Below are positions 17,994 to 48,954 of a stretch of 59,292 nt of DNA, in pieces; position 1 is the first letter of the stretch; each line of letters opens with the position of its first letter. This stretch comes from a virus. Taxonomy: Duplodnaviria > Caudoviricetes. The translations under genes were made by a program, and so were the position numbers. Location of the stretch: IMG/VR virus record IMGVR_UViG_3300030708_002074, positions 1-59,292 of that record; one strand, written 5' to 3'. Below the pieces are notes generated by a model. That model did not search any database. It was not told the DNA's origin and was given only the letters and a program-made list of their open reading frames with translations.

Positions 17994-18348
17994 CGATAAT
18001 ACTTGAATCGAGGAAACACGGTGTATCTGGACCCAAATCTGTTTGCATCAACTGTTGCAAAGCCATCCCAGCTTGCTCTTCTGTAAGTCCGTGTTTTTTC
18101 TTTAGCAACGCAATCGTCATACTAGAAGAATAGCACGCAATAGATGGGTGTTGCGGGTGCTCCACAACGCCAAGCAGAGCTTCTTTTAGTTCTTCAAATA
18201 GGACCAGTGTCCTCGTTGATTCATCGTTTTCATCATCAAACCCCATATCTAGTTTTACCCCTACTTGCCGAGTAGCATAAGGGTCGTCTAGTGGGTTATA
18301 ATTAAACCCCTCTGAATCAAAGTTGTTGATCATTTGGTTCAATATCAA
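17986..18348 (-). CDS. Hypothetical protein
   Basis: ~115-120-aa ORF in the operon; the start may be ATG 18333. Confidence 0.6.
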   Translation of the reverse strand: MILNQMINNFDSEGFNYNPLDDPYATRQVGVKLDMGFDDENDESTRTLVLFEELKEALLGVVEHPQHPSIACYSSSMTIALLKKKHGLTEEQAGMALQQLMQTDLGPDTPCFLDSSIIDE

Positions 18349-33200: not shown

Positions 33201-36200
33201 GGATTCATTCCAGCAACTTGCCCACAGCGTGTTTGTTAAGCAGCTTGGTGACGGCTCTATCCTGAAAGGACAAAATGAGTTTAACAAAAAGAAAGATGAG
33301 TTCGCAAAGCTTGATCCAACCTTAGAAGTTAAGGATGAGGAGACAGGAGAGACCCGAACAATCCCAAATGAAAAGTATCAAGAGCTAAAGGAATTCTTTG
33401 AACAGAAAGAACAACTGGCTCAGAAGATGTTTGATTCGTGGAAGGTTGCAGCCAAGATCGATCAGCCTGTTGCCACAAGAGATCGCAGCACCGAGCCTTT
33501 ACCCCTAAGTGAAAGATTCAATTTCGACTTAAACACTTCCGAGGGTAGTCCACCGATCCCTGACACTGATGCACTGCTCAAGATGCTGGGCAAAGATCTG
33601 GGACTCAAGTCGCAAGACCCAAGTCTCGATGACGATGGACGTTTGTATTCCAGTTTCAGAGCAAAAAGCAGGTCTGCTAAAGACTCTGAGTTTGACGCAT
33701 TCGATTTCAACTACACAGAATTATTCGACCAGTTCAACCTACCCGTGTTAGAGGTAGGGGATGTCGAGGTGTATGGGAAAGGCTTTATCAATAAGATAAA
33801 GAAGTTCGTTAACACTCATTCAATCGGATTGTTGCAGCCTGAAGTTCATCACTGGTTGAAGCACCGGCAGGGAATGACAAAGGGATTGAGTCAGGAGCTT
33901 ATGCTGATTCGTTCAAAACTAAAAAGCCTCACGGATAAAGTTTATCCTGATGGTGTCCCTGTTGATGAGAACGGTGTGTCACTTGTGCAGAAAGCTAGTG
34001 GTTCTACAGAAGGTGTGTTCATCTCAGATGAAGCACGGAAAAGAATTGATGACCAATACGAAGCCGACATGGTTGCGGCATGGACAGAATCACATCAAGC
34101 ATCGCTCGATGGCACCGAACCCGCCACTAAGATCAAGGCTGATTTTGATGCAGCTTTGGAAGCCGCGAAAGCTAACCAAGAACTAGAGACACAAATAGAA
34201 CTTGGTAGGAGGAGAGATCAGTTGAAAGCTGAGAGGAATGAGGCGATCCAAAGAATCGCTCAAGACTCTAAAGAACTTTCTAACGCAATAGAAAAGCTAG
34301 GTGAGTTCCGCAACAAGATGTCAGAGAAGTTGCAGGAGATTCACAAAGAGTCAGGGAAGTATGATCTTAAGATAGATCAGAACAATGACATTTACCTGAC
34401 CCGTGCATACAGGATGTTCCTAGACGTTGGCTATGCCGATGCAGTCAGGAACAGTCCTGAGTATAAGAAGGAAAGAGATGCCGCCATTGCTTACTTTGAG
34501 GGCGTTCACTTGGAGATTGAGAAGAAGATCATGATGCAGAACAACCCGCAGATGACACCGACAGAAGTCGAGAGTGCCATCAGGGATGACATGCAACGGA
34601 GACAAATCGGTAAGCGTGCGCTTGAAGCATTCATCTCTACTTACGATAGAGGGTCGAACGTGAATTACTTTGGTGCGGAGGAACAGATCAAAGCTTTGGT
34701 GGACAACCTGAAGGCTAAGAAGAATATTCCTAAAGAGCTTAGGGATATCCTTGGAGAGTTGAAGGACACTAACCTACCCGACAACTTGCTGAGAACTATA
34801 ATGGTTGTTGGCAACATGGCAGCTAATCAATCTTTCTTGAACGCTGTCGCAAAGGCGGGGCTGAAGACGGAGGATAATCCAGACGGCTGGCTCTTTACTG
34901 AAGAGCAGATTGCTGGTGTGGACAACCCATCTGACTATGCAAAACTTGTAGAAGGATCAGAGTTCAATTCTGATTTCAGTCCACTCGCAGGGCTATACGC
35001 AAAAGTAAATACAGCGAACGCATTCCGTGAGACATTCAAAAGGCACGGGACTATTGTAGCCAACCCATCGGAGCAGCTATTTGAAAATGGCTTTAAGTAT
35101 TTTAGGTGGCTGACTGGATTGTCTATGGGTCTCAAGACTATGGGTTCAATACCATTCTACTACCGGAACGCCATCGGTAACGTGTTGTTCTTTGGCCCGA
35201 TGCAGGTTGGCTACATAAATATCTTTAACGTGAAGAGCGTGGGAGACCTTGTGAATGCGGGACTCCATAAAGACTTTGCAGTAAACTTCCTTAAGGAGTC
35301 GAAGAGAAACTTCCTTGGGGACAAGGCAAAGCTAGACGAATACATTGCTAAACTTCGCGTGCTACGTTTGGTCGGTGATGAATCGCACACGAATACTTTC
35401 AAGCAGTTGATGACTGGTGAAAGGGATATTGATTCTACCCTTGAAGATTTCGAGTCCATCATCCAAGGGAAGGAAGGTGACCTTAGCTTAGAAGGTAAAG
35501 TCTCAAAGGCGATAGGCGCAACAAGCAGGGCGGTGAGTCGGAGAGGGAAGATAGTCGGAACAGACTTGGCACCGAGGATGGCTGCTGCAATGGACTCCTT
35601 CTACAAGATGTCCATGTTTGAGTTTGAACTTAAACACTTAAAGGCTGCTCAAGAACATGACAGGAAGATGAATCCTGATTCGACACTGGCAAAGCAGAGT
35701 GATGATCAACTCCAGAAAGATGCAGCGCAGAAGGTTCTCAGGACAATGCAGTCCTATTCTCAAGCACCTCCGATAGCGAGAGCGGCAAGCCGATCCGTTG
35801 CCGGTGCGCTGTATGCTCCGTTCATCAGGTTCCAAGCTGATGTGATTAGGGTAATGGTAAACACTCCTAAGATAGCATTGGAGGAAATAAACTCTGGCAA
35901 CCCCATTCTCAAAAAGAGAGGCGTGCAAAGGTTTTCTGGTTTCGTGCAAACGGCAGGGTTAGCTTCTTTAGGTTTGCCACTGTTACTTAGAGCTATCTTT
36001 GGAATAAGTGACGATGAAGATGAAGCATTGAAAGCAGCGGGGCCTGCATGGGCACGCTACAATAATCCTCTGTATTACAAGGACGATAATGGGAAGTTGC
36101 AGATGCTTAACTTCACATACACTAATCCGTTTTCACCAGTTACAGATAGCATAGCAGCTACGGCGGGTGCAGTCTTCAATCCTGATGCAACACCAGAGAG

Positions 36201-36954
36201 TGCAGCCACTACGCTCTTTAACTCTTTTCTTGTTAAGAACTTTTTGAGCGATCAGATCTTTGCGGGGGCTGCCGCTGAAGCAATTAGTGGGGAGGACATG
36301 CAAACTGGTGAGCGCGTCTTTATTGATGGCATCGACAAAGGTTTCGATAAGCACATCAAACAACTAGCTCACATTGGGAAAGAAGCGTTCGCACCAAGGA
36401 CACTTCAAAATGTAGTCAAAGCTATTAGGAATTCTGACGGTGACTTCACAGAGTATCATGACTCTCCAATGGGGCTTGTCTTAAATGAGGTCAACCCAAT
36501 CAGGGCTGCGTTTAGACCGATACCCGTCAATCCTTCAGATAAGTTCAGATCGTTTTTGTTCAAAACAGAACAACGTAGGAAACAAATCCGAGAGAAGTTC
36601 AGGCCGCTATACAAGGATGACCCACTATCGCCGGAAGATATATTTGGTATATACGATGAGGTCTACAAAGACATGGAGTCCTTGAACAAGGAGGTCATGA
36701 ACAAGTTCCAAGCCTTTGAGAAGATAGGAATACCCAAGGGTAAACTCTATGCGATGGCCCGTGGTTCAGGCGGTGGACCTAAGCTGGGCAAGCGGCGATC
36801 TCAACTGCTCCTGCTTGGCTACATGGAACGTCCTGTGCTGGAGGCTAACAAAGTGCGGATCATGCTCAGTGAAAGTCCAGAGATGCAGGAGCGTGTAAGA
36901 GTTTTTGCAGAAGCAGTTAAGAGATACCCTCGCTTTAGCAAGGTTCAGGATTGA
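24226..36954 (+). CDS. Giant (4242 aa) internal virion / polyvalent protein with two zincin-like HExxH domains
   Basis: Single ORF; no Cys seen; LLHEYFHA...QEFV (31729) and LRHELAHK...QERLA (32461); Gly-rich hydrophobic segments near residues 680-820 and near the C-terminus. Confidence 0.75.
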   Translation: MSEEPFNPLDRLNLTGPDGPLSVNKLEVTSYDDWSSGQPSQDPIQAHLGYGDYLREEYIKNKSYNEDVEVSIQSELGEALAAKGLLTNENSDAVVSQIDAYNEPTLDQQVRDMVAHTSLEQDEWHNGNAYLERNEGVKTPEEIERLTENALASVNATRNDVLQAKLDAGEISFGRFTDAQGNSFIKAGDSAMDLPLHEALRRSKAAGGGVSLSDAIGIEQVGLLKVADGMNIPRYKMIQLGEIESLVRSEIANDDNLSIQLEAIGKRMAERDYSSFDHFEEGFRKSVGSTVRTIFEPIIGTLGGSMPSGVAREKAIDQAMLDDIDSTVMRVAKKFNKNPEDVRLAIQEVAIQNAPLKVFKDKDKLALNIRDDGYGLPFVPVAVKLDDDLFEKSLAARTDLTAATKKAIIAERDFFATNHFSNISNILANSDLSKKWLDHLNAGRAAKVSDKEILFSFTSNEDNKPYLDLPIFGDLYLKGSDITRPFSTAFSTVFALSGADWAKKHLANVAEDQNNRREIAELFGGKLGIAQDLATLIPEVTVDIGATALLTRFGGKGVATKAAAVKAPLYASMTKKGVLKALTTNAFRRGVGETTEELAEKLASQKLIRSATSKTALEALEAYNKVNLKNLTVGAIGITAANRSSGATYGSVYNSMLKSGASEEEAHDRALGTGMVAGAVTGLVTGGFSYFGRGGMEDALLSGMSYRNMKTVTERIVQKAPYAKLDGVSDAVFQQAIKDSTKAVLKGNFFGKSFVKAGAEEFAEESIDEFINTFVTDAGLEQDTPFFDHLKHSLYAGTLGGILGAGAPAVNAAARRLRPDLVGDLIQDATLEQNLINDITNRLRESNSSVTADVVRDILTRDLTPDAVRTPSQEDIDAQELAQQDDSEEVKQQAQFLLEIMRSTPEDQIQEEVDAVRKQRRSRKYRSAYAHSSFGDQMAYREDLAQPVIINEKGEVSDLAGVGLTLRTAEGIDEFDYLEMGIAVEDLPRLEKLIRANPDILAMPDSEWATYDPDSGVRDFRDLDLTKDLLSSLTETEYVQLGRLRDRNKVFYAGGDTVYETMPAEAVQQAIIKSKNVENKKPTSQIESDEFFTAYHLWEIVNEESGQQEVYSRGQYLTKKEAEKAAGFKMELGGDPSVEEFQAKSKVKRVDDDGNETIVDHPLLVKKTRGEGKEKPRTPKTVTKYELVREGAVETEEVVENIPATTFKKGNKVKFVFILGDTEFEEGVVDKDYDGDGTVDVADLDGNVFGLDPEQIITGKKQATKTKEKKSADKVIGTFDTEAQAQAAAKKAEGKTFVRKVTKSDNETVSVGDTVSQATDEGGDPVIDKVHEELLDQIQQKNKRIKVRDKDGTPRFTKDEAAKKFAELLEKEESKKQKKELTAQEKFEAILNKINKEENNGSLSPDAAEIAKGKVLGKRLRELTRKNKIEEAKKMVADAISSGKPAYIYDSSTKSLREAKINEKTGKVTFSKKSRPVFVENIAGEKVFITSSRVSGKTVFHKVGEQPADPAGAGVVFRTKENFVKFLEAGLDVTDPVKNVNWAGNVKASELEALNRIVENGLPIIGAMSADSGRTFGVDTTRRNKRPFYNKMRQLVAERIYNLFPVINVRRPVNGKAIYAKTALTAYSPWEFIKTPAGQKLAAKKVRTTSLRPTNIGGVFRAIAEAVPILELDKNNKPKAHKPVAFVDENDEGVFDNDPISMKVLLEEGYSVYFPDDFVGRLNPAFRFAKIGTRQKLVDIRGVGYTGDISSVKQRKAVVGDINVEGFRKKVKFASKFLRRGTAQDVEIDDPNKRGAKTTLRQMLMDLHDTINNAFKAETYDPKDVQVTSIEETFKFRADELKELDASLDRANKRLATGTPEEQEEAARQIETVKARRDRFYENLRVDVLAEAKKIADPEIENRIATYENLLFEQRAIQERLGLAAGEKEVAGNQTQIDANYRIIEQAVFKKEAIARSEGLGVTQDPFVAQNKLQSYLKPKRKQLPLTKGNFELAARQLQVEYAQEILFYQLKLQLADPKISDVEENGAIVIKEEQIEKAINIFLKNVNPTAGANPKAKKGSDYRGLKYDAKGRVTKASKIEFAYYILNSQIDTRVEKVEKGDNYQKVFKRYFEDRILLRDGVSERDRMPSFADVGQKITDRILKQQRLRGSAEKESPFNSERATTPDEVDALNLEMDHFVEMRMGVGEIDALLEGVQMDVVDIINQDPALEQQLDALLKEGPFALSTTDFYLRLNVEEKWSELVAFSRQGNMEGNSAPIAFLQNIRKLNSPAAVKLHRALRLFNIGNLEFGNKNPFILEEQFRAFDSEQILKDEIAALEGEEIDGVVRSRDELLRFADEILDAKKYVRWLTDEVRAIETQKGRVIDDFKARAKASSLHKIIKAYSSHKSFYSGSAVENAIDRAVAIDRNRKVAILLGLKEGRNDTERILNALKKIAVDDSLSESQQNAARILLMKPTYVEFILDQGGGSYAGRTRIKDDGRIEVVLDIAGYNGRGLVDVLLHEYFHASLLDSFSIDINSTSKPQRDARFAISQKIREVRDKVGSNVTTELTDGLKNIQEFVSNMMTNTKFQSYFRGQVGTPEFKKVVQNLFKVLDPQRSNLSKEFKDAFYDVVDLQGYEESTPITLSGLRQEAVNAAVADIEESDAFNASFNAVTGKEGDIDTDTASPLELEDIAVRAAELKQLAGIKIPSEINVAFSTLTGGRVANFDPATNTITFDANNAAIGTLNRGMDSLRAAQMVSKILRHELAHKSAKSALTPEMIQRVIDGSSLQDFKNDIDNYYGKGTPEAEAALARLNDPSKAAREKEVLVQERLADHVERAIGGFSSQQYEAFLMSNPSLLEVVSFYFKSFINKFIRALGGGVGQLTADERIAVNRMLVELRGIELGYRAPSPVFNPDATPQESLNRFLVVATGVDAPEFIEDQGATNLLPQVGADSQIDQPRATASTMATPRELDGVDQEYINLLATANVSPANLQKAQDLFETQAARITLDSFQQLAHSVFVKQLGDGSILKGQNEFNKKKDEFAKLDPTLEVKDEETGETRTIPNEKYQELKEFFEQKEQLAQKMFDSWKVAAKIDQPVATRDRSTEPLPLSERFNFDLNTSEGSPPIPDTDALLKMLGKDLGLKSQDPSLDDDGRLYSSFRAKSRSAKDSEFDAFDFNYTELFDQFNLPVLEVGDVEVYGKGFINKIKKFVNTHSIGLLQPEVHHWLKHRQGMTKGLSQELMLIRSKLKSLTDKVYPDGVPVDENGVSLVQKASGSTEGVFISDEARKRIDDQYEADMVAAWTESHQASLDGTEPATKIKADFDAALEAAKANQELETQIELGRRRDQLKAERNEAIQRIAQDSKELSNAIEKLGEFRNKMSEKLQEIHKESGKYDLKIDQNNDIYLTRAYRMFLDVGYADAVRNSPEYKKERDAAIAYFEGVHLEIEKKIMMQNNPQMTPTEVESAIRDDMQRRQIGKRALEAFISTYDRGSNVNYFGAEEQIKALVDNLKAKKNIPKELRDILGELKDTNLPDNLLRTIMVVGNMAANQSFLNAVAKAGLKTEDNPDGWLFTEEQIAGVDNPSDYAKLVEGSEFNSDFSPLAGLYAKVNTANAFRETFKRHGTIVANPSEQLFENGFKYFRWLTGLSMGLKTMGSIPFYYRNAIGNVLFFGPMQVGYINIFNVKSVGDLVNAGLHKDFAVNFLKESKRNFLGDKAKLDEYIAKLRVLRLVGDESHTNTFKQLMTGERDIDSTLEDFESIIQGKEGDLSLEGKVSKAIGATSRAVSRRGKIVGTDLAPRMAAAMDSFYKMSMFEFELKHLKAAQEHDRKMNPDSTLAKQSDDQLQKDAAQKVLRTMQSYSQAPPIARAASRSVAGALYAPFIRFQADVIRVMVNTPKIALEEINSGNPILKKRGVQRFSGFVQTAGLASLGLPLLLRAIFGISDDEDEALKAAGPAWARYNNPLYYKDDNGKLQMLNFTYTNPFSPVTDSIAATAGAVFNPDATPESAATTLFNSFLVKNFLSDQIFAGAAAEAISGEDMQTGERVFIDGIDKGFDKHIKQLAHIGKEAFAPRTLQNVVKAIRNSDGDFTEYHDSPMGLVLNEVNPIRAAFRPIPVNPSDKFRSFLFKTEQRRKQIREKFRPLYKDDPLSPEDIFGIYDEVYKDMESLNKEVMNKFQAFEKIGIPKGKLYAMARGSGGGPKLGKRRSQLLLLGYMERPVLEANKVRIMLSESPEMQERVRVFAEAVKRYPRFSKVQD

Positions 36955-38392: not shown

Positions 38393-38436
38393 GGTTGCCG
38401 CTTTTCTCAGGCAAGCGGCCAGCCGTCAACTCTTTT
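38393..38436 (-). promoter_or_regulatory. Element B copy 1 (promoter-hairpin)
   Basis: Minus strand TTGACG-17-GAAAAG; stem GCCGCTT/AAGCGGC around loop GCCTGAGAA. Confidence 0.75.
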
Positions 38437-38628
38437 CTAAAGTTTACTGACTAACTTCTGCAACTCCTCCACTTGGGCAAGTGCTTCATGGAGGACCGCA
38501 TCCTTGTCAACCTTGGGTTGATGCAACCCGATCAGCTTGTCGTGCAAGCTGTCGAGTTCCTGCTTGATGACCATCTGTGCAGACTTGCGTTGCATAGCTG
38601 GGAGATATTTCCTTACGTCGATAATCAT
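38437..38628 (-). CDS. Hypothetical helical protein
   Basis: Start moved to ATG 38628 (MIIDVRK), 4 nt after the upstream stop. Confidence 0.55.
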   Translation of the reverse strand: MIIDVRKYLPAMQRKSAQMVIKQELDSLHDKLIGLHQPKVDKDAVLHEALAQVEELQKLVSKL

Positions 38629-39180: not shown

Positions 39181-39212
39181 TACCTTATTTGTTTTTAGTT
39201 TGTTGGTTTTAA

Positions 39213-39250
39213 GGTTGCCCCTTTTGTCAGGCAAGGGGCCAGCCTTCAGG
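39213..39250 (-). promoter_or_regulatory. Element B copy 2
   Basis: Stem GCCCCTT/AAGGGGC, loop GCCTGACAA; the -35 position is degenerate (CTGAAG). Confidence 0.7.
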
Positions 39251-40613: not shown

Positions 40614-40657
40614 GGGTGCCCCTTTTATCAGGCAAGGGGCCAGCCGTCAATTCTTTT
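40614..40657 (-). promoter_or_regulatory. Element B copy 3
   Basis: AAAAGAA-TTGACG-17-TAAAAG with TGn; stem GCCCCTT/AAGGGGC, loop GCCTGATAA. Confidence 0.8.
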
Positions 40658-40662
40658 CGCGA

Positions 40663-41199
40663 TTAGTAACCCTCCAACTGAGGAGGGTGCTTTGCGTCCC
40701 ATTCTTCCATAGAGCAACGAGCCGACTCATACAGTTCACGATCTACCCTCTGAAGGATAGAGTAGTGAACTGCGTCGAGCAGTGAACGGAAGCACCCGCA
40801 ATCATCGTCAGGGTTGACGGGTTCCGGTGGTTCCGGTGGTTCCCAACGGGAGACGTAGCCGCCCCCTTCGTAAGTCCCGCGAACCCAAACAGGATAGCGT
40901 TTGGTTTCCGGTCCCCCGATCCGCTTGCGTGGTGGCGGGATCTCCGCTTCCACTTGGTAGTAGACAACCTCACCATCCGTCAGGCAATGCTCTGCACCCG
41001 TTCCGGTGTAAGGGATAAGCTCCCAGCCTCCACCTAATGTGTCCCGTTGGGCGGATGGTAGCGAGGAAAGATTGCACTTTGTCTTGAGCAATTCAGAAGC
41101 AACGAACACATCCCGTTCGTCTGCGGGGATGCAGGTTACTTCTCCATCTTCCACCTCATGGAAGGCGGGGAGTTCAATAGCATGTATTGGAGTTATCAT
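40663..41199 (-). CDS. Hypothetical early protein
   Basis: 178 aa, lying between element B copies. Confidence 0.65.
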   Translation of the reverse strand: MITPIHAIELPAFHEVEDGEVTCIPADERDVFVASELLKTKCNLSSLPSAQRDTLGGGWELIPYTGTGAEHCLTDGEVVYYQVEAEIPPPRKRIGGPETKRYPVWVRGTYEGGGYVSRWEPPEPPEPVNPDDDCGCFRSLLDAVHYSILQRVDRELYESARCSMEEWDAKHPPQLEGY

Positions 41200-41228: not shown

Positions 41229-41264
41229 GGTTGCCCCTGTTTGTCAGGCACAGGGGCTGAAGCC
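41229..41264 (-). promoter_or_regulatory. Element B copy 4
   Basis: Stem GCCCCTGT/ACAGGGGC, loop GCCTGACAA; no -35 match. Confidence 0.7.
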
Positions 41265-41276
41265 TTTGGGTTGTTT

Positions 41277-42830
41277 TCAGCCAAGGTCAACTGGAAGCCA
41301 AGTGCCCCAAGGATAGAGCTTCTCTCCCTGCCAGCCGTAGTCCAGCCAGACAACCTTGTAATCATACGGTTCCTCATCAGGCATCTGACTCCAATCAGTC
41401 TCACCATCCGTGAAGAAGAACAATGCACTGATCTCCTGATCAAGTTGCTCCTTCTCGATATAGGTGAACACCTTGTCCAACTCAGTCCACCCGTTCCCGA
41501 GGCTGGTGAGCTTATCAGGAAATGGATCACCGTAGTTAAGGTCCACAACCTCACCGACCTCATCGTCAATGGGGATCAGGATCACTCTTGAGAACTCCTT
41601 GTTAAGAGCAAACTCTTGAGCACGGGCGATCTGATCTTTCAACTCAGACTCACCAATGGAGCCAGACATATCGAATGCGAATGCAACCGTGCCAAGGGTT
41701 GGCTTGTCCCGTGCATCCCCAAGGCATCCCGTTGTGACATACGTATCATGATCGTATGGTGAACCCCACTTGGGATCGGTCATGTCATCCAGCACATCGG
41801 ACAGCAGTTCATCCCAAGGAACGGGATCACCGTGAACCTCATGCGCTGCTTCAGCGGCCCTTGCTTCCTTTAGATCTTTCTCAGATAAGAAAGTCTCACC
41901 CTTCATCTCAGCAATGGAGGAGCTGAGAACTACGGAGTTGATATTCTCTCGCTCCTGCTTCTCGACCTCTTCCAGTGTGGAGCCTTCAGGAATCTCAGGG
42001 GGGAGAACATCACCACCAAGTGAAGAGTCACCATGATCTGATTGGCTGGCACCGATGGAGTTGGCAATGGATTGTCCATCGTCACCGTCCTGCTGGTCGT
42101 CACCACCATCTTGCTGGTCGTCACCACCATCTTGCTGGTCGTCACCGTCCTGCTGGTCATCGTCACCACCATCTTGCTGGTCGTCACCGTCCTGCTGGTC
42201 ATCGTCACTGCCACCTTGCTGGTCGTCATCCTTGGGAGGATCAGGACTCTTCATGAGCAGTTGGTAGATGCCCCTGATTGTCATGTTCCCATACCCACTG
42301 ATCACTTGCTCACGGGGGTCCATGTTCTGCTTCTTGCCTTCAGCAAGGAGAGCATCATGGCAGGGTGTGAACTTACCATGCTCATCCTCAAACTCTATGA
42401 TCGGGAATGGAGTGAAGCCGATCTTAGGTTCAAGGCTAAGGTTCCGCTGGTGGATAATCCAGTTGTGATGGAAGTCCATAGCACGATTCGCATTCGCTCT
42501 GTCCTTCAGATCCGCAAACCTGATAGAGTCCATGCTGAATTTGTGGGAACCTTCATGAACCCAGAGGAATGAAACATTCCCTTCAGGATCATCCAATGCC
42601 TCCAGCCGCGACATCCCCTTGGGGTTGACCAGCACTGAGGTGTTACTGATAGCAGCGAAGTGCCCACATATCTCAGGATAGGGGCACCAATACCACTTCA
42701 TGCCAATGAGACCATCATAGATCTCAGGGGCATACCGCTTGCACCTACGCAACCCAGCAGCAGTCAGGTCATTACCCCTGACTGATGGTGAGAAACGCTC
42801 AAGCACATCTTCTATTTTCTTCTTAGCCAT
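41277..42830 (-). CDS. Metallopeptidase-vWA protein (DUF2201-like)
   Basis: WVHEGSH zincin motif with NRAMD; acidic linker; vWA MIDAS AFDMSGS...GWT...FFTDG. Start ATG 42830. Confidence 0.85.
   Translation of the reverse strand: MAKKKIEDVLERFSPSVRGNDLTAAGLRRCKRYAPEIYDGLIGMKWYWCPYPEICGHFAAISNTSVLVNPKGMSRLEALDDPEGNVSFLWVHEGSHKFSMDSIRFADLKDRANANRAMDFHHNWIIHQRNLSLEPKIGFTPFPIIEFEDEHGKFTPCHDALLAEGKKQNMDPREQVISGYGNMTIRGIYQLLMKSPDPPKDDDQQGGSDDDQQDGDDQQDGGDDDQQDGDDQQDGGDDQQDGGDDQQDGDDGQSIANSIGASQSDHGDSSLGGDVLPPEIPEGSTLEEVEKQERENINSVVLSSSIAEMKGETFLSEKDLKEARAAEAAHEVHGDPVPWDELLSDVLDDMTDPKWGSPYDHDTYVTTGCLGDARDKPTLGTVAFAFDMSGSIGESELKDQIARAQEFALNKEFSRVILIPIDDEVGEVVDLNYGDPFPDKLTSLGNGWTELDKVFTYIEKEQLDQEISALFFFTDGETDWSQMPDEEPYDYKVVWLDYGWQGEKLYPWGTWLPVDLG
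42077..42229 (-). repeat. Intragenic 18/21/24-nt tandem repeat encoding (D)DDQQDG(G) x7
   Basis: Seven TGCTGGTC cores between 42091 and about 42225. Confidence 0.9.
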
Positions 42831-42866: not shown

Positions 42867-42886
42867 GGGTTAACGGGCGTTAACCC
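42867..42886. repeat. Element A palindrome copy 1
   Basis: GGGTTAACGGGCGTTAACCC; contains the TAA stop of 42880-43875. Confidence 0.95.
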
Positions 42887-43875
42887 CACGACATCATGTC
42901 GTCCTTTGCCTCCTCGATAATTGCAGCACCCTGCACGATGAGATCGATTGCCTCTTCCCTTTCAGGCGGTGCGGCATTCTTCATGTCCACATGCTGAATG
43001 CTACTTGCAGCCGTGTTGAACACCTTGCTGAGTTTATCCGCTACAACGTCTGAGATATTGTAGCGTGCCATAAGATCCTTGGCACCAGTGAGCGCATCTT
43101 GAATCTCATCCACCCTTTTCTGAGTCACCCTGCCATTCGGCTCGGTGTGGGACTTGTGGAGTGACTTGGCATTGTCCCGCATGGTCTTCACAAGATACTC
43201 CACCGCATTCAGCATGTTGTTATCTTGCAGCGTCTTGTTGTGATGCACTTGGGCAGCCGTCTTGTTCTTCACCTCATCAGCAATGGCCGTGAGGAATCCA
43301 CTACGTCCAACCTCTTCAGGCTCCGTGTAGAAGATAGCCTCGATACGGAACCAGTTCTTGAGATCATCTACATCAGGGTAGTTCATCTCCCTTGCGTTCA
43401 TACCGAGGCGTGCTTTCGATCTTGCGATCATCGTATCGTATTCCAACTCAAGGTCAGGACGAACCCTGTTGATCTCAGCATTGTGCTTGTCAATCCAATG
43501 CTCCATTGCAGCACGCTCTGAAGCAGCGATGCTGTAACCACCAGCAGCACTTGGCATGAGCCTCCCGATGAAGCCCGCCGCCTTTGCCGCTTCCCCAAGG
43601 TGATCCTTGGGATCGAAGATGGAGTTGAATGATCGTCCGATCTTGGCGATCTTACCAAGGGCACACTTGGGTTCCTCTTGTTTTTTGTAAGGAACAGGTT
43701 TGAACATCGTGTCCCTACAACGGGCACTGGTAGAACCCGTGAGTTCCTTGATCGTGGACGAGGCGTTCTTCAGATTCTTACTATTCTTGGACCATGTTGA
43801 TTTGACCTTCGTCTCAACACGGAGGGTGGAATGGATGGAATTTGGAGCCGACAATTTGTTGAATGATTGTTTCAT
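42880..43875 (-). CDS. DUF3150-like protein (third component of an AAA-vWA module)
   Basis: EYDTMIARSKARLG...NYPDVDDLKNWF pattern; position between the AAA+ and vWA genes. Confidence 0.55.
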   Translation of the reverse strand: MKQSFNKLSAPNSIHSTLRVETKVKSTWSKNSKNLKNASSTIKELTGSTSARCRDTMFKPVPYKKQEEPKCALGKIAKIGRSFNSIFDPKDHLGEAAKAAGFIGRLMPSAAGGYSIAASERAAMEHWIDKHNAEINRVRPDLELEYDTMIARSKARLGMNAREMNYPDVDDLKNWFRIEAIFYTEPEEVGRSGFLTAIADEVKNKTAAQVHHNKTLQDNNMLNAVEYLVKTMRDNAKSLHKSHTEPNGRVTQKRVDEIQDALTGAKDLMARYNISDVVADKLSKVFNTAASSIQHVDMKNAAPPEREEAIDLIVQGAAIIEEAKDDMMSWG

Positions 43876-43904
43876 TTCTCTTTTTACTTTTGATTAAACC
43901 GAAA

Positions 43905-43943
43905 CCGCTTTTGTCAGGCAAGCGGACAGCCGTCAATTCTTTT
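43905..43943 (-). promoter_or_regulatory. Element B copy 5
   Basis: TTGACG-17-CAAAAG; stem CCGCTT/AAGCGG, loop GCCTGACAA. Confidence 0.75.
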
Positions 43944-43957
43944 CTAAAAAAGTAGAT

Positions 43958-43992
43958 AGGGGGAAGGTTAACGGGCGTTAACCCTCCCCCCT
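43958..43992. repeat. Element A copy 2, extended into a longer GC hairpin (possible terminator)
   Basis: AGGGGGAAGGTTAAC-GGGC-GTTAACCCTCCCCCCT; a T6 run follows 6 nt later on the minus strand. Confidence 0.85.
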
Positions 43993-43996
43993 GATG

Positions 43997-45295
43997 CTAC
44001 TTGAGGGAGGAGGCAGTCGCGCACTGAGCAAGATCCACTCCCTTGTATTGGCACTGATCGTAAAGATACTCAGCCACTCCCTTGTGCAAGGCACCAAGGA
44101 GATCGTGAGTGAACCATCCAGTCAGTTGCTTGTTGTGCAAGGCAACCTCCAATCCCTGATCAGAGATGTCCTGCTCCTGACAGAGCAGATCAAGCGCACC
44201 GATACAGAATCGATACTGTTTGTCAGGACTGCTAGGCAAGGCAGTGAGGTCACCGGCCTTGAACTTCTTCACATCTTCAATGATGTGACGAGTGGTTCCG
44301 ATCCACTGAGCACACTTCTCACCCTGCTCTCTTCCGAGGTAGCCAATCAGCATTGCCTCGAAAGCGTCAGAGCGGTAGTCGCCCCAAGGTAACATGGCAG
44401 CACGGGCGGCACGCTCATACGTTCTCCCCGTTGCAGCTTGTTGTCCACGGTAGGACTCAATCTCCTTGAGAGGATCATGCTTCTTACTACGCTTCTCAAA
44501 CTCCAGCCACTGGGTAACCTTGCTGGTCGCACACTTGTGACCGGCAGGATCTTCAATGACTGCTTTGACAGCAAGCACATCCTTCATCCTGAAGGGAAGT
44601 GACTCAAGCATGGACTCCAGACTGAGTGAAGGATCGTTCTTCAGATCAGCAAGGAGAACGTCCAGATCCGGTTTGCTGGTAGTAACCAGCGCCCTGTTCT
44701 GGAATGGAAGCGGAACGATCTTGGAGTTGGCACCATCATAAGGACGGTTACCCGTTCCAACAATCAGCATGTTGTCAGCACACTTGAACCCTCCCAGCAT
44801 CGGACCTTCCCATTCAGTCCCGACTCTGATCGGCATCATGTCATCATCAAGAACAACCTTACCTGCTTTGTTCCTTTTGTATTTAACAACCTCGCCGTCA
44901 GGATGAAACATATCCTGAAACTGATTGTATGAATGAGCCGATCCGTTTCCGATCTCCTCAATATTGTAGATGCCACGGTCACTGCCATGCTCATCGTAGA
45001 GCGGGACATCAACCCTGTTGGGAGCACCCTTGAGAAGTGGACCACCGGGATCTGCTGGGTTGGGGTAGATCTGCCCCCCATACACGGAGTAAGGTTGCTC
45101 CGTGAAGTTAGTCCGTTTGATCCATACCGCTCCAATCACTTGAGCCAGTTTCTTAACCAGCCAACTCTTACCGGAGCCAGCAGCTCCAAGCTGAATGAGG
45201 AAGGGATCTTTCTGGACCATGCACGCAAGTGCAAGGATCAGCATTGTGTGGAGGGACACATCGTTGCCCATACGGGCTTCGTCTTGTGGTTTCAT
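43997..45295 (-). CDS. MoxR-like AAA+ ATPase
   Basis: Walker A GAAGSGKS, Walker B variant IYNIEE, sensor-1 VGTGN, Arg finger PFQNR, ATGRTYE. Confidence 0.85.
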   Translation of the reverse strand: MKPQDEARMGNDVSLHTMLILALACMVQKDPFLIQLGAAGSGKSWLVKKLAQVIGAVWIKRTNFTEQPYSVYGGQIYPNPADPGGPLLKGAPNRVDVPLYDEHGSDRGIYNIEEIGNGSAHSYNQFQDMFHPDGEVVKYKRNKAGKVVLDDDMMPIRVGTEWEGPMLGGFKCADNMLIVGTGNRPYDGANSKIVPLPFQNRALVTTSKPDLDVLLADLKNDPSLSLESMLESLPFRMKDVLAVKAVIEDPAGHKCATSKVTQWLEFEKRSKKHDPLKEIESYRGQQAATGRTYERAARAAMLPWGDYRSDAFEAMLIGYLGREQGEKCAQWIGTTRHIIEDVKKFKAGDLTALPSSPDKQYRFCIGALDLLCQEQDISDQGLEVALHNKQLTGWFTHDLLGALHKGVAEYLYDQCQYKGVDLAQCATASSLK

Positions 45296-45326
45296 TATTA
45301 CGTTTTGTTTTGTTGTTGTTTAGGTT

Positions 45327-45370
45327 GGGTGCCCCTTTTGTCAGGCAAGGGGCCAGCCGTCAATTCTTTT
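45327..45370 (-). promoter_or_regulatory. Element B copy 6
   Basis: AAAAGAA-TTGACG-17-CAAAAG; stem GCCCCTT/AAGGGGC, loop GCCTGACAA. Confidence 0.8.
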
Positions 45371-45387
45371 CGAGAGGGGTTGGTGTA

Positions 45388-45407
45388 GGGTTAACGGGCG
45401 TTAACCT
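45388..45407. repeat. Element A copy 3
   Basis: GGGTTAACGGGCGTTAACCT; overlaps the TAG stop of the upstream gene. Confidence 0.95.
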
Positions 45408-46083
45408 ATTCGGTAAATCCTTTTGTTCCTTTGCGAATGAGGTGAGCAAGATGCTGCTGGTCTTTCTCTTCATCGGTTAGAGCCACAGCAGTGTTGATCA
45501 TGTAGTCATTCAGTATCTCCTCCCAATCAGGACCATAGTGCATCCACCTGCTGGGAAATGGGTTGATGTCATCCAACCTCTGCTTCAAGCGGCTTTCGTC
45601 TACCTGCACATCACACCCATTGATGAATGCAAAGGGTAGGCAGGTAGCTTTGCTGCCGTCCTCTTCATTATTGCCAAAGTCCATTGGGAGAAGGTTCGGT
45701 TTGTAGAACGGTTCATAGGACTCAGTTTGATATCTCTTGAAGATGGCAGTGTGCTTTGCCAGATCGTCATCAAGTTCCTTGTGCATACACTCATGTGCTT
45801 CAATCAACTTGTTCCCCAGACTGTGAGTCTCATCATACGATTCGATCTGCTTCTCGACCTCTTCATCAATCAGCAGATCTATATGCTCAAGATCCCACTC
45901 CGTTGCCCAACTAAAACCCGCCGCCAAGATGGCGAGGATATAGGACAGGGCGATGCCCGTGAGTCCAGCGTAATAGTCCCCATGAAAAATGGGGATCGCC
46001 CAGATGCAGGCTGATGCAATCGACATTACACATGCCGAACGTAACAGCCACATTTTCACTGTGAGTTTAGTTCTCAGTTTCAT
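45406..46083 (-). CDS. Hypothetical two-TM membrane protein
   Basis: Two hydrophobic N-terminal segments followed by an acidic domain; start ATG 46083. Confidence 0.65.
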   Translation of the reverse strand: MKLRTKLTVKMWLLRSACVMSIASACIWAIPIFHGDYYAGLTGIALSYILAILAAGFSWATEWDLEHIDLLIDEEVEKQIESYDETHSLGNKLIEAHECMHKELDDDLAKHTAIFKRYQTESYEPFYKPNLLPMDFGNNEEDGSKATCLPFAFINGCDVQVDESRLKQRLDDINPFPSRWMHYGPDWEEILNDYMINTAVALTDEEKDQQHLAHLIRKGTKGFTE

Positions 46084-46087
46084 TATC

Positions 46088-46180
46088 TCGTTTTGTGTTT
46101 TCGTTTTAACATGCTTGCACTTTGCAAACACAATACCGCCTAGGGTTAACGGGTGTTAACCCTAAGCGGAATGTATCTAC
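46088..46180. repeat. Long repeat copy 1, containing element A copy 4 (46143-46162)
   Basis: 93 bp, 91/93 identical to 46792-46884. Confidence 0.95.
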
Positions 46181-46557
46181 TAACGCACTACCCCAAAGGT
46201 GACGGTGTTACTCTCATGCTCCGCACCACTCCCTTCAGGACCAAAGGAGGTAATGGTGATACAGGCACCGTTCTTTATGGTTTCCACATACCACTTCCCC
46301 TTTCTCTGGCTCACCTTGAAACCCAAATCAAAAAGGTCACTGGCTTGGTTGATTCTCTGCATGGTGAGTTTAGTCCAATGCCCTTTGCCATCTTCATCCG
46401 CACCAGTGTTCAAGGTCACTGCATAATGAGGGTAAGCAGCGAAATCTGATTCAGCAGGTTCAAATGAAACGATATCAGTTTGATACAGGCGGATGATGGT
46501 CTTGCGACCTTCATACCGGATGGATGTAGCTTTCTTATACTGTAATGGAGTTCCCAT
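46180..46557 (-). CDS. Hypothetical early protein
   Basis: 125 aa bracketed by element A copies. Confidence 0.7.
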   Translation of the reverse strand: MGTPLQYKKATSIRYEGRKTIIRLYQTDIVSFEPAESDFAAYPHYAVTLNTGADEDGKGHWTKLTMQRINQASDLFDLGFKVSQRKGKWYVETIKNGACITITSFGPEGSGAEHESNTVTFGVVR

Positions 46558-46595
46558 TTTCTTATGTTGTTTTGTTCTGTTCTGTTTTACGTTGA

Positions 46596-46615
46596 GGGTT
46601 AACGGGTGTTAACCT
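46596..46615. repeat. Element A copy 5
   Basis: GGGTTAACGGGTGTTAACCT; overlaps the TAG stop at 46614. Confidence 0.95.
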
Positions 46616-46790
46616 ACGGGTTGAAAGGCAGTCCCATCTTGCGACCAAGATGGTAACTGATCTCGTCAATCTTTCGCGACAGTTGCTGCCGCGTAGCCGG
46701 TGTGAGGACCGGCCCACTATCAGCCAGCCTCATCTTATAGTTTGCAAGGAGTGCTTTCAGCTCTTCCTTGCTCATATCTTCCAGTTTCAT
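46614..46790 (-). CDS. Hypothetical 58-aa helical-hairpin protein
   Basis: MKLEDMSKEELKALL...GPVLTPATRQQLSRKI, loosely LEM/SAP-like; start ATG 46790. Confidence 0.6.
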   Translation of the reverse strand: MKLEDMSKEELKALLANYKMRLADSGPVLTPATRQQLSRKIDEISYHLGRKMGLPFNP

Positions 46791-46791
46791 T

Positions 46792-46884
46792 TCGTTTTGT
46801 GTTTTCGTTTTAACATGCTTGCACTTTGCAAACACAATACCGCCTAGGGTTAACGGGTGTTAACCCTAGGCAGAATGTATCTAC
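46792..46884. repeat. Long repeat copy 2, containing element A copy 6 (46847-46866)
   Basis: Near-identical to 46088-46180. Confidence 0.95.
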
Positions 46885-47237
46885 CTAGCAATGGTTACGA
46901 TCCCAGCACGGGACTCATCAATCTGGTAAACCAAGGTGGTGTAGTGATTGTCCCTACCCGCGATAACCAGTTTCTTGTTATCGTAATGGTAAACCTTTTT
47001 GTTCACCCAGAAACGGTGACGACCTATGTTCTCTATGAGACGGCGAGCCACATCAAGAGAGATAAGGGTGTGCCGAGCGAAACCCCCGTTGGCGGAAAGA
47101 TGCTCGATAAGATCCTTCACCCACCAATCGTGCATGTCGCACACTTCCTCCCCAATGGGCAGATCGTGGATGTCAATCTTCGGAACGATCCAATGACCGT
47201 TGCTTCCAGATTCCAATAGTCTTTTGAATTTCTTCAT
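46881..47237 (-). CDS. Hypothetical early protein
   Basis: 118 aa bracketed by element A copies. Confidence 0.65.
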   Translation of the reverse strand: MKKFKRLLESGSNGHWIVPKIDIHDLPIGEEVCDMHDWWVKDLIEHLSANGGFARHTLISLDVARRLIENIGRHRFWVNKKVYHYDNKKLVIAGRDNHYTTLVYQIDESRAGIVTIAR

Positions 47238-47263
47238 TACTTTGTTTTTGGTTTTACGTTTGA

Positions 47264-47298
47264 GGGTTAACGGGTGTTAACCCTAAGCGAAATGTATC
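47264..47298. repeat. Element A copy 7 with the right arm of the long repeat
   Basis: GGGTTAACGGGTGTTAACCC followed by TAAGCGAAATGTATC. Confidence 0.95.
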
Positions 47299-47767
47299 AG
47301 GCATAAACAACGTGAGGATGCCCATCCTCATGCGCCTCCAAGGCAAGGTCCCTGCTGCTGGACTCAAGTTCCTTGGCAGAGGATGGCTTCTCAATGTGCC
47401 ACCATTGCGGTCCTTCTGCTCCCTCCATGTAATCATCCACCCACTTTTCCACATGGGTTACGGTCGCGGGAACATAGGACACACGGTTGTCCCATTGGGA
47501 CATATCGCAGTCTCTCCCGCCATATACGATGGCGACCATTTCTTCCTGCGCGTTCTCCTCAATTTTAAAGGCTAGCTTCTCCCTGCGAGAGAGCCTGTCG
47601 GAGAGTGATCTCTTTTCGAGATACTCTCTATTTGATATCCTTCCCAGCTTCCCGCAGAGCCAGCGGGTTTTAATGCTGGGATGGAGGTGCAATTTTCCAT
47701 CCACCACGTTCACCAGACCTTGCCTGATCCACCTAGTTGGGATGTAGGCAGTTGTTTGTTTCTTCAT
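47297..47767 (-). CDS. Hypothetical early protein
   Basis: Start ATG 47767 (MKKQTTAY). Confidence 0.65.
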   Translation of the reverse strand: MKKQTTAYIPTRWIRQGLVNVVDGKLHLHPSIKTRWLCGKLGRISNREYLEKRSLSDRLSRREKLAFKIEENAQEEMVAIVYGGRDCDMSQWDNRVSYVPATVTHVEKWVDDYMEGAEGPQWWHIEKPSSAKELESSSRDLALEAHEDGHPHVVYA

Positions 47768-47787
47768 TATATCGTTTTGTTCTTTTT

Positions 47788-47886
47788 GTTTTAACATGCT
47801 TGCCTTTGCAAACACAATACCGCCTAGGGTTAACGGGTGTTAACCCTAAGCGGAATGTATCGGAAAGGGTTAACGGGCGTTAACCT
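47788..47886. repeat. Long repeat copy 3 (element A copy 8, 47827-47846) plus element A copy 9 (47867-47886)
   Basis: About 74 bp matching copy 1 with a 1-nt deletion; a second palindrome 20 nt away supplies the TAA stop of 47870-48550. Confidence 0.95.
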
Positions 47887-48550
47887 CAGCATGACCAGCG
47901 GCAAGATAAATCAGATCGTCAATCGCCTTCTTCCGGCCCTTGCCTTTCAACTCGGGCAGGTTCTTCCGAAGGATCTTGAGCGCAAGCTCCACGTTTTCCT
48001 TTGGCGTGTTTGCCTTTGCAGGAGCAGGAGCAGGAGCAGGAGCCGGAACAACCGTGGAAGTCACGACTGCCTTTACCTTGTCCTTGTTGTCTTTGTTTCC
48101 TCCGTTCTGCTTGTAGTCGATTTCAAGATCCTGAGATCGGACCTTGCTCCACGTTGCGTCTGACCCTTTGTCAGCCTTGGTGACCTTGGCACCATGTGCC
48201 TTCAACGCATCCATCGCTCTCTGCCATGCTTTCTTCATCCGATTGGAAATGTCATACTGATCTTTCGGGGTTTTGGCGTGGAATCCAGAATAGTCTACCC
48301 AGATTTTCATTGCGGGCCTGAGCAGGGCGTGCATGCCGGTAGCGGCATACGTTTTCACAACGTGGATAGCGGCCGCATCTTCCATGCTGAACTTCTTTGC
48401 ATACTTGAATGACCTTTCTGCAAAGGATTCAATGGACTTGCTAAGTTTGATGCAGGAGGCTCCAAGTTCCTTGAACTCTTTGGAATCCATGCCAGCAACT
48501 CCAAGTTCCTTGAGAACGGCGATTGCGGTAGTATTGATATGCTTACTCAT
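47870..48550 (-). CDS. Hypothetical Lys/Ala-rich protein with PAPAPAPAPA linker (first early gene)
   Basis: 226 aa; (AACA/AAC)n leader. Confidence 0.7.
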   Translation of the reverse strand: MSKHINTTAIAVLKELGVAGMDSKEFKELGASCIKLSKSIESFAERSFKYAKKFSMEDAAAIHVVKTYAATGMHALLRPAMKIWVDYSGFHAKTPKDQYDISNRMKKAWQRAMDALKAHGAKVTKADKGSDATWSKVRSQDLEIDYKQNGGNKDNKDKVKAVVTSTVVPAPAPAPAPAKANTPKENVELALKILRKNLPELKGKGRKKAIDDLIYLAAGHAEVNAR

Positions 48551-48586
48551 CTTTTTCTGTTGTTTGTTGTTTGTTGTTTGTTGGAT

Positions 48587-48618
48587 GGGGCAGGTTAACG
48601 GGTGTTAACCCTCTCCCC
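48587..48618. repeat. Element A copy 10 (extended hairpin)
   Basis: GGGGCAGGTTAAC-GGGT-GTTAACCCTCTCCCC. Confidence 0.9.
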
Positions 48619-48795
48619 TTCAGTATTAGGAGCGAGCCGACCAGCGGAAACCCCTTGTTTTGTAGGGTAGGGGGGAAGCGGTAAAGGTGGGGCCGATCTA
48701 CAGGGAAAGGGCAATCGGACCATGCGACCGTGCAAAATGGCGTTTGATCGGCCCTATATAGTCCTGCAAAGTATTTTTGGCATAAACCGGATAGG

Positions 48796-48808
48796 TAACC
48801 CATTGATA
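48796..48808 (-). promoter_or_regulatory. IHF-consensus site in the divergent intergenic region
   Basis: TATCAATGGGTTA matches WATCAANNNNTTR exactly. Confidence 0.45.
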
Positions 48809-48926
48809 ATGAGTCAGTTAGCCCATAACTTCAAACAAGATGTGTAATGCAGACTTGCACGCCACGGGGGGGTATGCGCTTTTTGTGCGCGTGCGCGTGT
48901 ACATATATACCTGTCTGTGAAAAAAT

Positions 48927-48954
48927 TTGACAAGTGTTGTTCTGCACGAATAAT
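48927..48954 (+). promoter_or_regulatory. sigma70-type promoter
   Basis: A-tract, then TTGACA-16 nt-AATAAT, 10 nt before ATG 48965. Confidence 0.55.

Follow-up and report, generated by a model that had tools for sequence, protein, structure and literature searches.

A clade-specific palindrome marks every gene boundary in a variable array of an uncultured marine phage and may act as a sense-strand RNA stem-loop

Phages keep their changeable genes, often those for host takeover or counter-defence, in small hypervariable regions, and the traffic of genes through such regions is poorly understood beyond the T4-like phages. Hairpins between genes are familiar as intrinsic terminators and as intercistronic stem-loops or repetitive extragenic palindromic (REP) elements, which stabilise the upstream messenger RNA (mRNA). 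The closest described system is formed by the PeSL (promoter-early stem-loop) cassettes of T4-like phages, which the accessible parts of the original reports present as composite promoter-terminator motifs flanking orphan genes (Arbiol et al. 2010, PMC2839356; Comeau et al. 2014, PMC4122927); according to the same parts of the earlier report, they mediate indels between RB49 and phi1 and yield mini-circles (PMC2839356). Here, we describe a repeated palindrome in a phage lineage unrelated to T4. The window that we analysed is a whole viral record of IMG/VR (IMGVR_UViG_3300030708_002074; Duplodnaviria, Caudoviricetes), 59,292 bp long and 98% complete, in which ten copies of a 20-nucleotide (nt) unit punctuate a leftward block of nine genes. 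The reading that we favour, with confidence a little above even, is that these units are intercistronic stem-loops of the sense RNA which double as recombination points for the shuffling of open reading frames (ORFs).

On the plus strand the unit reads GGGTTAAC-GGGY-GTTAACCC, and on the minus strand GGGTTAAC-RCCC-GTTAACCC. A scan of both strands with the pattern GGGTTAACNNNNGTTAACCC, allowing up to two mismatches, returned exactly ten matches, all on the plus strand, at the positions given for H1 to H10 in Table 1; 100 shuffles used as a chance control gave a mean of 0.00 matches and a maximum of 0. Five copies are perfect, and the other five carry one mismatch at the outermost pair. All ten lie within 5.7 kb. 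The 18-nt core occurs 10 times forward and 0 times in reverse in the whole record, and beyond the palindromes the hexamer GTTAAC is found only six times. A palindrome stands at each of nine gene boundaries, from upstream of gene 47870-48550 to upstream of gene 41277-42830, with one boundary doubled (47867 and 47827, 40 nt apart), and the distance from hairpin to gene start is 26-92 nt for all nine genes, the first included. The initial annotation of this DNA had listed these ten copies, one for each gene boundary of the block and none elsewhere, and in all of this it was correct. It had also described the element on the plus strand; the pattern stands, but since the array genes lie on the minus strand, the hairpin lies in the sense RNA with RCCC as its loop, and this is the biologically relevant strand.

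Each of the four overlaps with an upstream stop codon that had been pointed out (42880, 45406, 46614 and 47870) is present. The TAA at 42880-42882 lies inside the 5' arm of H10, the TAG codons at 45406-45408 and 46614-46616 overlap the first two core bases of H8 and H6, and gene 47870-48550 is translated through arm and loop of H2, with its TAA (47870-47872) in the 3' arm. Judged from position and content, the block presumably consists of early genes; among array and neighbouring proteins, 8 of 10 lack a Pfam family and 6 of 10 a PHROG.

Arrays of this kind are rare in the material searched. The array region has no DNA match in 50,697 phage records, and in a rough control of 250 loci (2.79 Mb), dispersed arrays of at least four identical perfect palindromes occur only in this phage family. 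An any-loop version of the pattern is found in at least 119 stretches of IMG/VR; among the matches listed, all are singletons except a 68-kb relative and one unrelated two-copy contig, and no further contig among them is related by tblastn. Among bacterial genomes, 43 contigs (L132-L174) contain the 18-nt core with its loop, one copy each, where we calculate about 35 by chance. These single matches lie mostly in Alphaproteobacteria, several of them at orthologous intergenic sites, and the palindrome may be a regulator site in those bacteria. The CtrA box, TTAA-N7-TTAA, was considered and rejected for the core, in which the spacing is N6.

The 68-kb IMG/VR record (G001, locus L012), whose ATPase is 96% identical to that of the window, holds exactly seven copies, all in the homologous block. 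The arms are unchanged and the loops read, in order, AGCC, GCCC, GCTT, GCTT, GACC, GCCC and GCCC; the loops of this clade (clade 1) overall are ACCC, GCCC, AGCC, GCTT and GACC. In the window, ACCC is found at five (H3-H7) of the six small-gene boundaries, whereas the relative shares the derived GCTT at two loci, which shows that copies are homogenised within a genome. A more distant clade (clade 2; loci L180, L181 and L182) was retrieved with a VWA profile. Its VWA protein, ATPase and 331-aa protein are 38-39%, 28% and 25% identical to those of the window, and its helicase, portal and downstream genes 75-99%. The unit of this clade is GGGTATA-ACCRAC-TATACCC, again 20 nt long, in the same layout and framed by GGGT...ACCC. 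A 97%-complete record of clade 2 (G002) contains 12 copies, on one strand, within 6.2 kb and nowhere else, and the repeated module of stop codon, hairpin and leader measures 70-90 nt in this clade (families D1 and D2). Structure and position are thus conserved, and the sequence is clade-specific. The initial annotation had taken the invariant stem to imply sequence-specific recognition. This is not compelled, since the distant clade has another stem sequence at the same positions and recombination at the cores could also give identity within a genome.

The first genes of the two clades (226 and 174 aa) have no detectable relation, so that no candidate for a factor co-evolving with the core is found there. 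As a separate observation, the trio of ATPase (43997-45295), 331-aa protein (42880-43875) and VWA protein (41277-42830) is 25-47% identical between clades, against 75-99% for the rest of the genome; this trio inside the array has been exchanged, or has diverged, together with the core sequence. Homologues of the ATPase number only three in a set of 5.8 billion proteins, those at 52-54% identity among them. The contigs of the latter were not found in the viral, metagenome or genome contig sets, of which the metagenome set gave only near-identical short contigs, and VWA homologues at 51-60% identity (P0005-P0009) are not in IMG/VR. Among the matches listed, a helicase-profile scan added only relatives of 19-35% identity.

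Comparison of the two clades offers a view of what is conserved in the element. Pairing was counted on ungapped 20-nt units (45 copies from five records, 32 distinct rows); a MAFFT alignment broke the pairing register by gaps. Pairs 2:19 to 7:14 are Watson-Crick in 32/32 rows; at 5:16 and 6:15, the clades differ in both partners of the pair, a compensatory exchange. The stems extend past the unit in several sequence versions, and orthologous stems show G-C, G.U and A-U at one and the same pair. In these extended stems, with the H1-type rows left out, the sense strand has 18 G.U and 0 A.C pairs, a count that does not represent independent events, as the copies share descent; the direction is uniform across both clades. 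For the H1-type rows, the ungapped count seemed to favour the antisense strand, but folding reveals an internal loop and a sense-strand fold in these as well. For the long hairpins, the sense strand gives a fold that is 7-14 kcal/mol more stable than that of the antisense strand (Table 1). The copies followed by module D3 have many G.U pairs in their outer stem, so that folding of the opposite strand is 8-14 kcal/mol less favourable. Taken together, these patterns support a hairpin selected in the sense transcript and a role at the RNA level.

The same data bear on the possibility that the core is a double-stranded DNA operator for a co-evolving dimeric phage regulator, which would bind at every boundary and shut off or block transcription of these genes. 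Arms of 7-8 bp that are identical within a genome around a 4-nt centre that varies in clade 1 make a pattern of two half-sites, each clade has its own core, as immunity specificities do, and H1 lies in the regulatory region before the first gene, with no copies outside the block. Analogies are the mycobacteriophage stoperators, which show an orientation bias, and the conserved inverted repeats of phiC31. Stoperators are described, in the accessible part of the source, as intergenic sites spread over a phage genome (PMC9283540). A DNA site, however, does not need complementarity that reaches beyond the core, differs among copies and has its G.U pairs on the sense strand only (18 versus 0), and the 6-nt centre is also conserved in clade 2. 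Pfam and PHROGs gave no repressor-like gene among 10 array and 10 neighbouring proteins, many of them orphans; the sole helix-turn-helix match (18317-18886) lies beside the terminase, and the lack of an integrase leaves no sign of lysogeny. We therefore regard an operator as an unlikely explanation.

The stem-loops come in two structural forms, which appear to decide whether a boundary ends a transcription unit. In the long form (H3, H5, H7 and H9), the 8-bp core tips a 23-25-bp hairpin of -39 to -45 kcal/mol (z -4.4 to -7.4), the 5' arm of which holds the upstream stop codon and the 3' side of which runs into a U-rich tail. These four (47827, 46847, 46143 and 43965) are the copies that pass a terminator-like scan of the minus strand, and each of them is followed by module D3 or by element B. 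H9 looks like a classical terminator after the ATPase gene. The other six copies fail the scan and are bare 7-8-bp hairpins, H1 having an added lower stem; in H1, H4, H6 and H10, an A/C-rich leader of 26-41 nt leads to the next ATG. The statement of the initial annotation that most copies lack a U-tract is thus accurate, and its conclusion that they are not ordinary terminators holds for six of them, but not for H3, H5, H7 and H9, which are ordinary-looking terminators. In the relatives, the orthologue of H7 (L012, 9314) keeps the long stem with changed bases, and those of H1 in L012 and L182 fold with z-scores of -5.1 and -4.6, with different lower-stem sequences. Two copies in L182 run into UUUU (7185 and 8689), and these are the two that have B-like modules behind them; after the remaining ten comes either a leader with an ATG or a further copy.

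Sense-strand RNA structure at every cistron boundary would also be expected if the hairpins were processing sites, at which a host enzyme of the RNase III type or a phage endoribonuclease cuts polycistronic RNA into single-gene messages, in the manner of the early RNase III sites of T7 or of Cas6 on CRISPR repeats. Six of the ten copies are not terminators and are strictly conserved nevertheless, the four long copies have 23-25 bp, a length sufficient for RNase III, and a sequence-specific nuclease would account both for identity within genomes and for clade-specific cores. Against this stands the length of the remaining stems, 7-8 bp in the six short copies and 10-15 bp in clade 2, as 7-15 bp is too short for RNase III; in addition, searches with the array proteins gave neither a nuclease nor an RNA-binding family. 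Processing is accordingly given a low probability here.

Module D3 forms the 3' part of a 96-nt repeat. It is made up of the 3' arm of the long stem, a block with the conserved sequence TTTGCAAAGTGCAAGCATG and a leader rich in A and C, and only its position suggests a promoter. Matches of the sigma-70 type in the array are weak (9/12) and occur in three D3 copies, with the hairpin serving as the -35 element, and the promoter type of the host may differ. The Bacteroidota -7 motif, with the consensus TAnnTTTG, is absent from the sense strand of the array. A Shine-Dalgarno-like 4-mer is present for only 6 of the 52 called genes, and A is abundant in the leaders, which we take to point to a host of the Bacteroidota type. 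As an observation in its own right, genes of the 37-48.6 kb block have leaders of A and C only (AACAAAACAACA...), and the late genes lack such leaders.

The absence of an evident host-type promoter motif in the array, together with a hairpin 26-92 nt upstream of every gene, the first included, would suit a set of promoters for a virion-carried phage RNA polymerase as in N4, and the structural module does encode a 4242-aa protein of unassigned family. We nevertheless hold such promoters to be most improbable. N4 relies on a hairpin of the template strand, but the G.T pairs here are found on the non-template strand, and the U-tails of four copies fit termination. For the 4242-aa ORF (24226-36954, plus strand), neither Pfam nor PHROGs gave a family, and no sequence match in the PDB fell below E 0.17. 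A genome search with Pfam RNA_pol (PF00940) was empty, but so was its control, and the search is therefore uninformative. The accessible part of a preprint describes a DFDxD motif in a crAss-like RNA polymerase (bioRxiv 10.1101/2020.03.07.982082). A virion RNA polymerase in the 4242-aa ORF was rejected, if weakly: its only DxDGD string, DYDGD, lies in D-x-D-x-D-G-x-V-D-x-x-D, a context that we read as a calcium-binding loop between low-complexity linkers. The same ORF carries two HExxH strings (residues 2502 and 2746), and its EF-hand-like D-x-D-x-D-G loop is at residue 1232.

The second property of the array is its variable gene content, which the initial annotation had suggested in describing it as a series of cassettes. 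In a whole-genome blastn comparison of the window with G001 there are 15 gaps, four of them clean one-sided indels, of which two run from core to core, one from element B to element B and one lies elsewhere (8185-8492). All four ends of the core-to-core indels fall within 1 nt of the palindrome core, so that single-gene cassettes bounded by the palindrome were indeed found; the cassettes are given in Table 1. The gene of the B-bordered cassette, 40663-41199, is present in L180 and L181 (82% aa identity). Flanking sequences offer a further level of detail. In the flank matrix, copy 8859 of L012 combines the left flank of H5 with the right flank of H6, and copy 8419 has the left flank of H2 on one side and a plain leader on its right. 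H4 is chimeric as well, with a long-hairpin arm type on its 5' side and a plain leader type on its 3' side, and both H4 and L012 8859 have a long-hairpin 5' arm but lack the 3' arm that would pair with it. Such chimeric flanks indicate that the crossovers lay inside the shared core.

Metagenome contigs from four of four independent runs contain an alternative 3' part of gene 45406-46083 that starts at exactly 45407, the core edge. Contigs of four DNA runs break at the repeats. Two joints of run X7 (46784->47223 and 47825->47263) are not relied on, having 34-35 letters on the shorter side, and a joint 45362->40000 is an artefact of element B copies that are 96% identical.

Within the distant clade, the pattern is the same. 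The backbones of L182 and L180 are 97-98% identical, and all five differences lie in the array or at element B. An alignment of relatives with breakpoints on the palindrome had been proposed as a check of the cassette idea, and both comparisons bear it out, with three of the four clean indels of the window at palindrome or B repeats and five of five differences in clade 2. Homology between L182 and L180 sets in again a few bases ahead of each hairpin and extends to the leader end, which indicates that the exchanged unit is the ORF and the constant unit the 70-90-nt module. Between the clades, the 58-aa ORF (46614-46790 in the window; 6091-6276 in L182, 58-61 aa) has about 92% DNA identity in unrelated surroundings. 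The identity runs from the stop codon to a point a few codons short of the start, and each copy sits in the modules of its own clade. This ORF is best described as an ORF-precise mosaic unit.

Crossovers inside a 20-nt core with unrelated flanks, as seen between the window and its relative, could hint at a dedicated site-specific cassette system of the integron or REP/RAYT kind. The conserved module starts at the upstream stop codon, all cassettes point in one direction, and the core matches the consensus of the integron core site in 6 of 7 positions. However, no match at E<=1 was found in the 98%-complete genome for the tyrosine recombinases (PF00589; control matched in 14/14 genomes), the serine recombinases (PF00239; control positive) or the RAYT / Y1 HUH transposases (PF01797; control matched in 10 genomes), and for the first two families the earlier statement that the genome has no integrase holds. 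The perfect 20-nt hairpin has neither the bipartite boxes nor the extrahelical bases of attC, its conserved part is the apex rather than the base of the stem, and the resemblance of GTTAACC to the integron site is lost in clade 2. The 70-90-nt module of that clade is, moreover, long enough for ordinary homologous recombination. A dedicated site-specific system is for these reasons considered very unlikely.

In the reading that we favour, the palindrome would be the conserved apex of an intercistronic stem-loop in the minus-strand RNA of small, presumably early genes. The long U-tailed copies H3, H5, H7 and H9 most likely end transcription units, ahead of the promoter-like module D3 or element B. 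At the short copies, a gap of 26-41 nt leaves no room for a promoter, and transcription would have to read through; lying inside operons, these copies could act as attenuators, as barriers to RNA decay or as insulators ahead of the unstructured A/C-rich leaders. The same sequence at every boundary would make a crossover place for ordinary recombination, and homologous, short-homology or template-switching events could then lead to whole ORFs being gained, lost or replaced.

Several points weigh against this reading. A U-tract is missing from six of the ten copies, and a stem of 8 bp makes a weak barrier. The identity of all 10-12 cores in a genome, alongside a loop that varies in clade 1, is not explained by the model alone, and the hairpin stems of element B in the same region do covary. 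For the core-to-core indels, the crossover had to fall in about 20 bp of identity, a short stretch for homologous recombination, and the 58-aa ORF is found with the other core type in the distant clade, so that homology of the cores cannot account for that exchange. H1 lies ahead of the first gene, without an upstream cistron to terminate or protect. The promoter role of D3 and element B is positional only, with no TAnnTTTG on the sense strand and weak sigma-70-type matches, and the pair counts overstate the number of independent events, as the copies are related by descent.

The identical cores could be kept by frequent recombination at the core or by a factor that reads the sequence. It is possible, though unlikely, that a dedicated phage-encoded factor of the latter kind (an RNA-binding protein, an endonuclease, or a structure-specific recombination protein outside known families) reads the hairpin and keeps the cores identical, and that the wholesale switch to a compensatorily changed core in the sister clade goes back to it as well. 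If so, the block would form an integrase-free system, complete in itself, for the expression as well as the capture of accessory genes.

Element B, the other intergenic repeat of the region (Table 1), consists in order of a box AGAAAAGAATTGACGGCTGG, a hairpin with a conserved 9-nt loop GCCTGACAA and an A/C-rich leader, and its stem covaries among copies (CCCCTT/AAGGGG, CCGCTT/AAGCGG and CCCTGT/ACAGGG). It is nearly identical in the distant clade (family D5), although the proteins that it flanks are 25-47% identical, and it marks a mosaic border, with the divergent ATPase-VWA segment on one side and the conserved helicase segment on the other. Element B may combine a promoter with a protein-binding hairpin in the 5' untranslated region. 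Upstream of H1, about 240 nt of non-coding DNA (48700-48950) show higher conservation between the window and its 68-kb relative than the adjoining genes do. This stretch contains back-to-back sigma-70-like boxes (TTGACA-16-AATAAT, plus strand, 11/12) and GC/AT-alternating runs. Possible roles are those of a divergent early promoter region and of a non-coding RNA ending at H1.

Two further features lie in neighbouring or distant genes. In the VWA/DUF2201 gene, a 21-nt tandem coding repeat (42062-42228) encodes a linker rich in D, Q and G, and its copy number varies in metagenome contigs (a 63-nt skipping joint and 3-nt indels). Gene 18317-18886 (minus strand), which diverges from the gene of the large terminase, encodes a 189-aa protein with an N-terminal MerR/HTH_23-like helix-turn-helix, the only helix-turn-helix or DNA-binding signature found; its product could be the small terminase or a regulator.

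The genome as a whole encodes a family A DNA polymerase, a primase-like protein, a PD-(D/E)XK exonuclease, an SNF2 helicase and a large terminase. Compared with isolates, the DNA polymerase reaches about 28% identity at best, and the top matches are Bacteroides phages. Scans of the window for tRNA genes and Rfam families were empty. The runs that contain the phage sequence are marine metagenomes.

Table 1. Positions of the palindrome copies, repeat modules and cassettes (window coordinates unless a locus is named), with predicted folding energies in kcal/mol and z-scores
Feature	Position	Strand	Context	Fold
H1	48592..48611	-	upstream of first gene, 41 nt to ATG at 48550; lower stem across internal loop	sense z -2.8
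H2	47867..47886	-	short; encodes last five codons and TAA of gene 47870-48550; then H3	
H3	47827..47846	-	apex of ~24-bp hairpin, U-rich tail, then D3	sense -42.0 (z -5.1), antisense -33.8 (z -2.3)
H4	47264..47283	-	short; 26 nt to ATG at 47237	
H5	46847..46866	-	apex of long hairpin, U-rich tail, then D3	sense -39.1 (z -6.1), antisense -27.0
H6	46596..46615	-	short; fused to TAG of gene 46614-46790; 38 nt to ATG at 46557	
H7	46143..46162	-	apex of long hairpin, U-rich tail, then D3	sense -39.2 (z -7.4), antisense -25.5
H8	45388..45407	-	short; fused to TAG of gene 45406-46083; then element B	
H9	43965..43984	-	apex of 23-bp hairpin, then UUUUUU, then element B	sense -45.1 (z -4.4), antisense -38.1 (z -1.4)
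H10	42867..42886	-	short; TAA of gene 42880-43875 in 5' arm; 36 nt to ATG at 42830 (VWA/DUF2201 gene)	
Module D3	46085..46142; further copies 46789-46846, 47769-47826	-	3' part of 96-nt repeat, family identity 80-97%	
Cassette	46616..46846 (blastn indel: 46614-46846)	-	58-aa gene 46614-46790 and D3; absent from G001; borders at H5, H6	
Cassette	47284..47866 (blastn indel: 47282-47866)	-	156-aa gene 47297-47767, H3 and D3; absent from G001; borders at H2, H4	
Cassette	40659..41195 (blastn indel: 40658-41195)	-	178-aa gene 40663-41199; bordered by element B; absent from G001 and L182	
Element B, full copies	45327-45375, 43900-43948, 40614-40662, ~38398-38440	-	intergenic repeat	
Element B, hairpin-only copies	41235-41255, 39193-39248	-		
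Element B-type copies in L182	11385, 12779, 14001			

If the favoured reading is right, the phage described here belongs to a second, unrelated lineage in which repeated stem-loop modules serve both as gene punctuation and as exchange points. The layout is unusually clean, with one invariant 20-nt hairpin per boundary and lineage-specific cores. This gives a simple sequence signature for finding such regions in viromes, and it makes the array a compact test case for whether identical hairpins inside operons are kept by recombination alone or by a recognition factor.

Compared with REP elements and ordinary terminators, the array shares hairpins closed by G-C pairs that lie just past stop codons in the sense RNA, a subset of them U-tailed. 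Ordinary elements of this kind, however, do not share one sequence across an operon, and no RAYT is present here. The early RNase III sites of phage T7 are likewise hairpins between cistrons of an early polycistronic RNA, but they are individually different, irregular and about 20 bp or more in length, whereas six of the ten copies here have only 7-8 bp and four have 23-25 bp. With integron attC sites, the array has in common a one-directional series of single ORFs, palindromic sites that begin at the stop codon and a variable gene content. The integron analogy drawn in the initial annotation fails nonetheless: no IntI-type recombinase and no attC architecture are found, a perfect 20-nt hairpin stands in place of an imperfect attC of 57-141 nt, and the core GTTRRRY, matched in 6 of 7 positions by GTTAACC of clade 1, is not kept in clade 2, which has TATACCC at the same place.

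Mycobacteriophage stoperators, as the accessible part of the source describes them, resemble the array in placing many copies of a short lineage-specific sequence in intergenic gaps (PMC9283540). They differ in being asymmetric 13-bp DNA sites read by a known repressor in temperate phages; here, the data favour an RNA structure, and neither a repressor nor an integrase was found.

The likeness to PeSLs, as far as the accessible text of the reports goes, is the closest. Both are repeated intergenic stem-loop motifs in a hyperplastic region of small orphan genes, with the upstream stop codon at the start of the motif, some terminator-like stem-loops and no dedicated recombinase, and in both, single genes are inserted, deleted or replaced between close relatives with the motifs as borders. 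What is held constant differs: in the text at hand, PeSLs conserve a strong sigma-70 promoter and vary the stem-loop, whereas here the stem-loop core is invariant. The sigma-70-type early promoter of PeSLs has no counterpart better than 9/12 in the array, and H1, H4, H6 and H10 lie only 26-41 nt before an ATG; most copies leave no room for a promoter, the promoter-like D3 and B being separate additions. Moreover, the core is identical within each genome and changes in a compensatory manner between clades, in a lineage unrelated to T4. The array is therefore best filed as a system of the PeSL kind, with strict identity of the core within each genome, in an unrelated lineage of uncultured marine phages.

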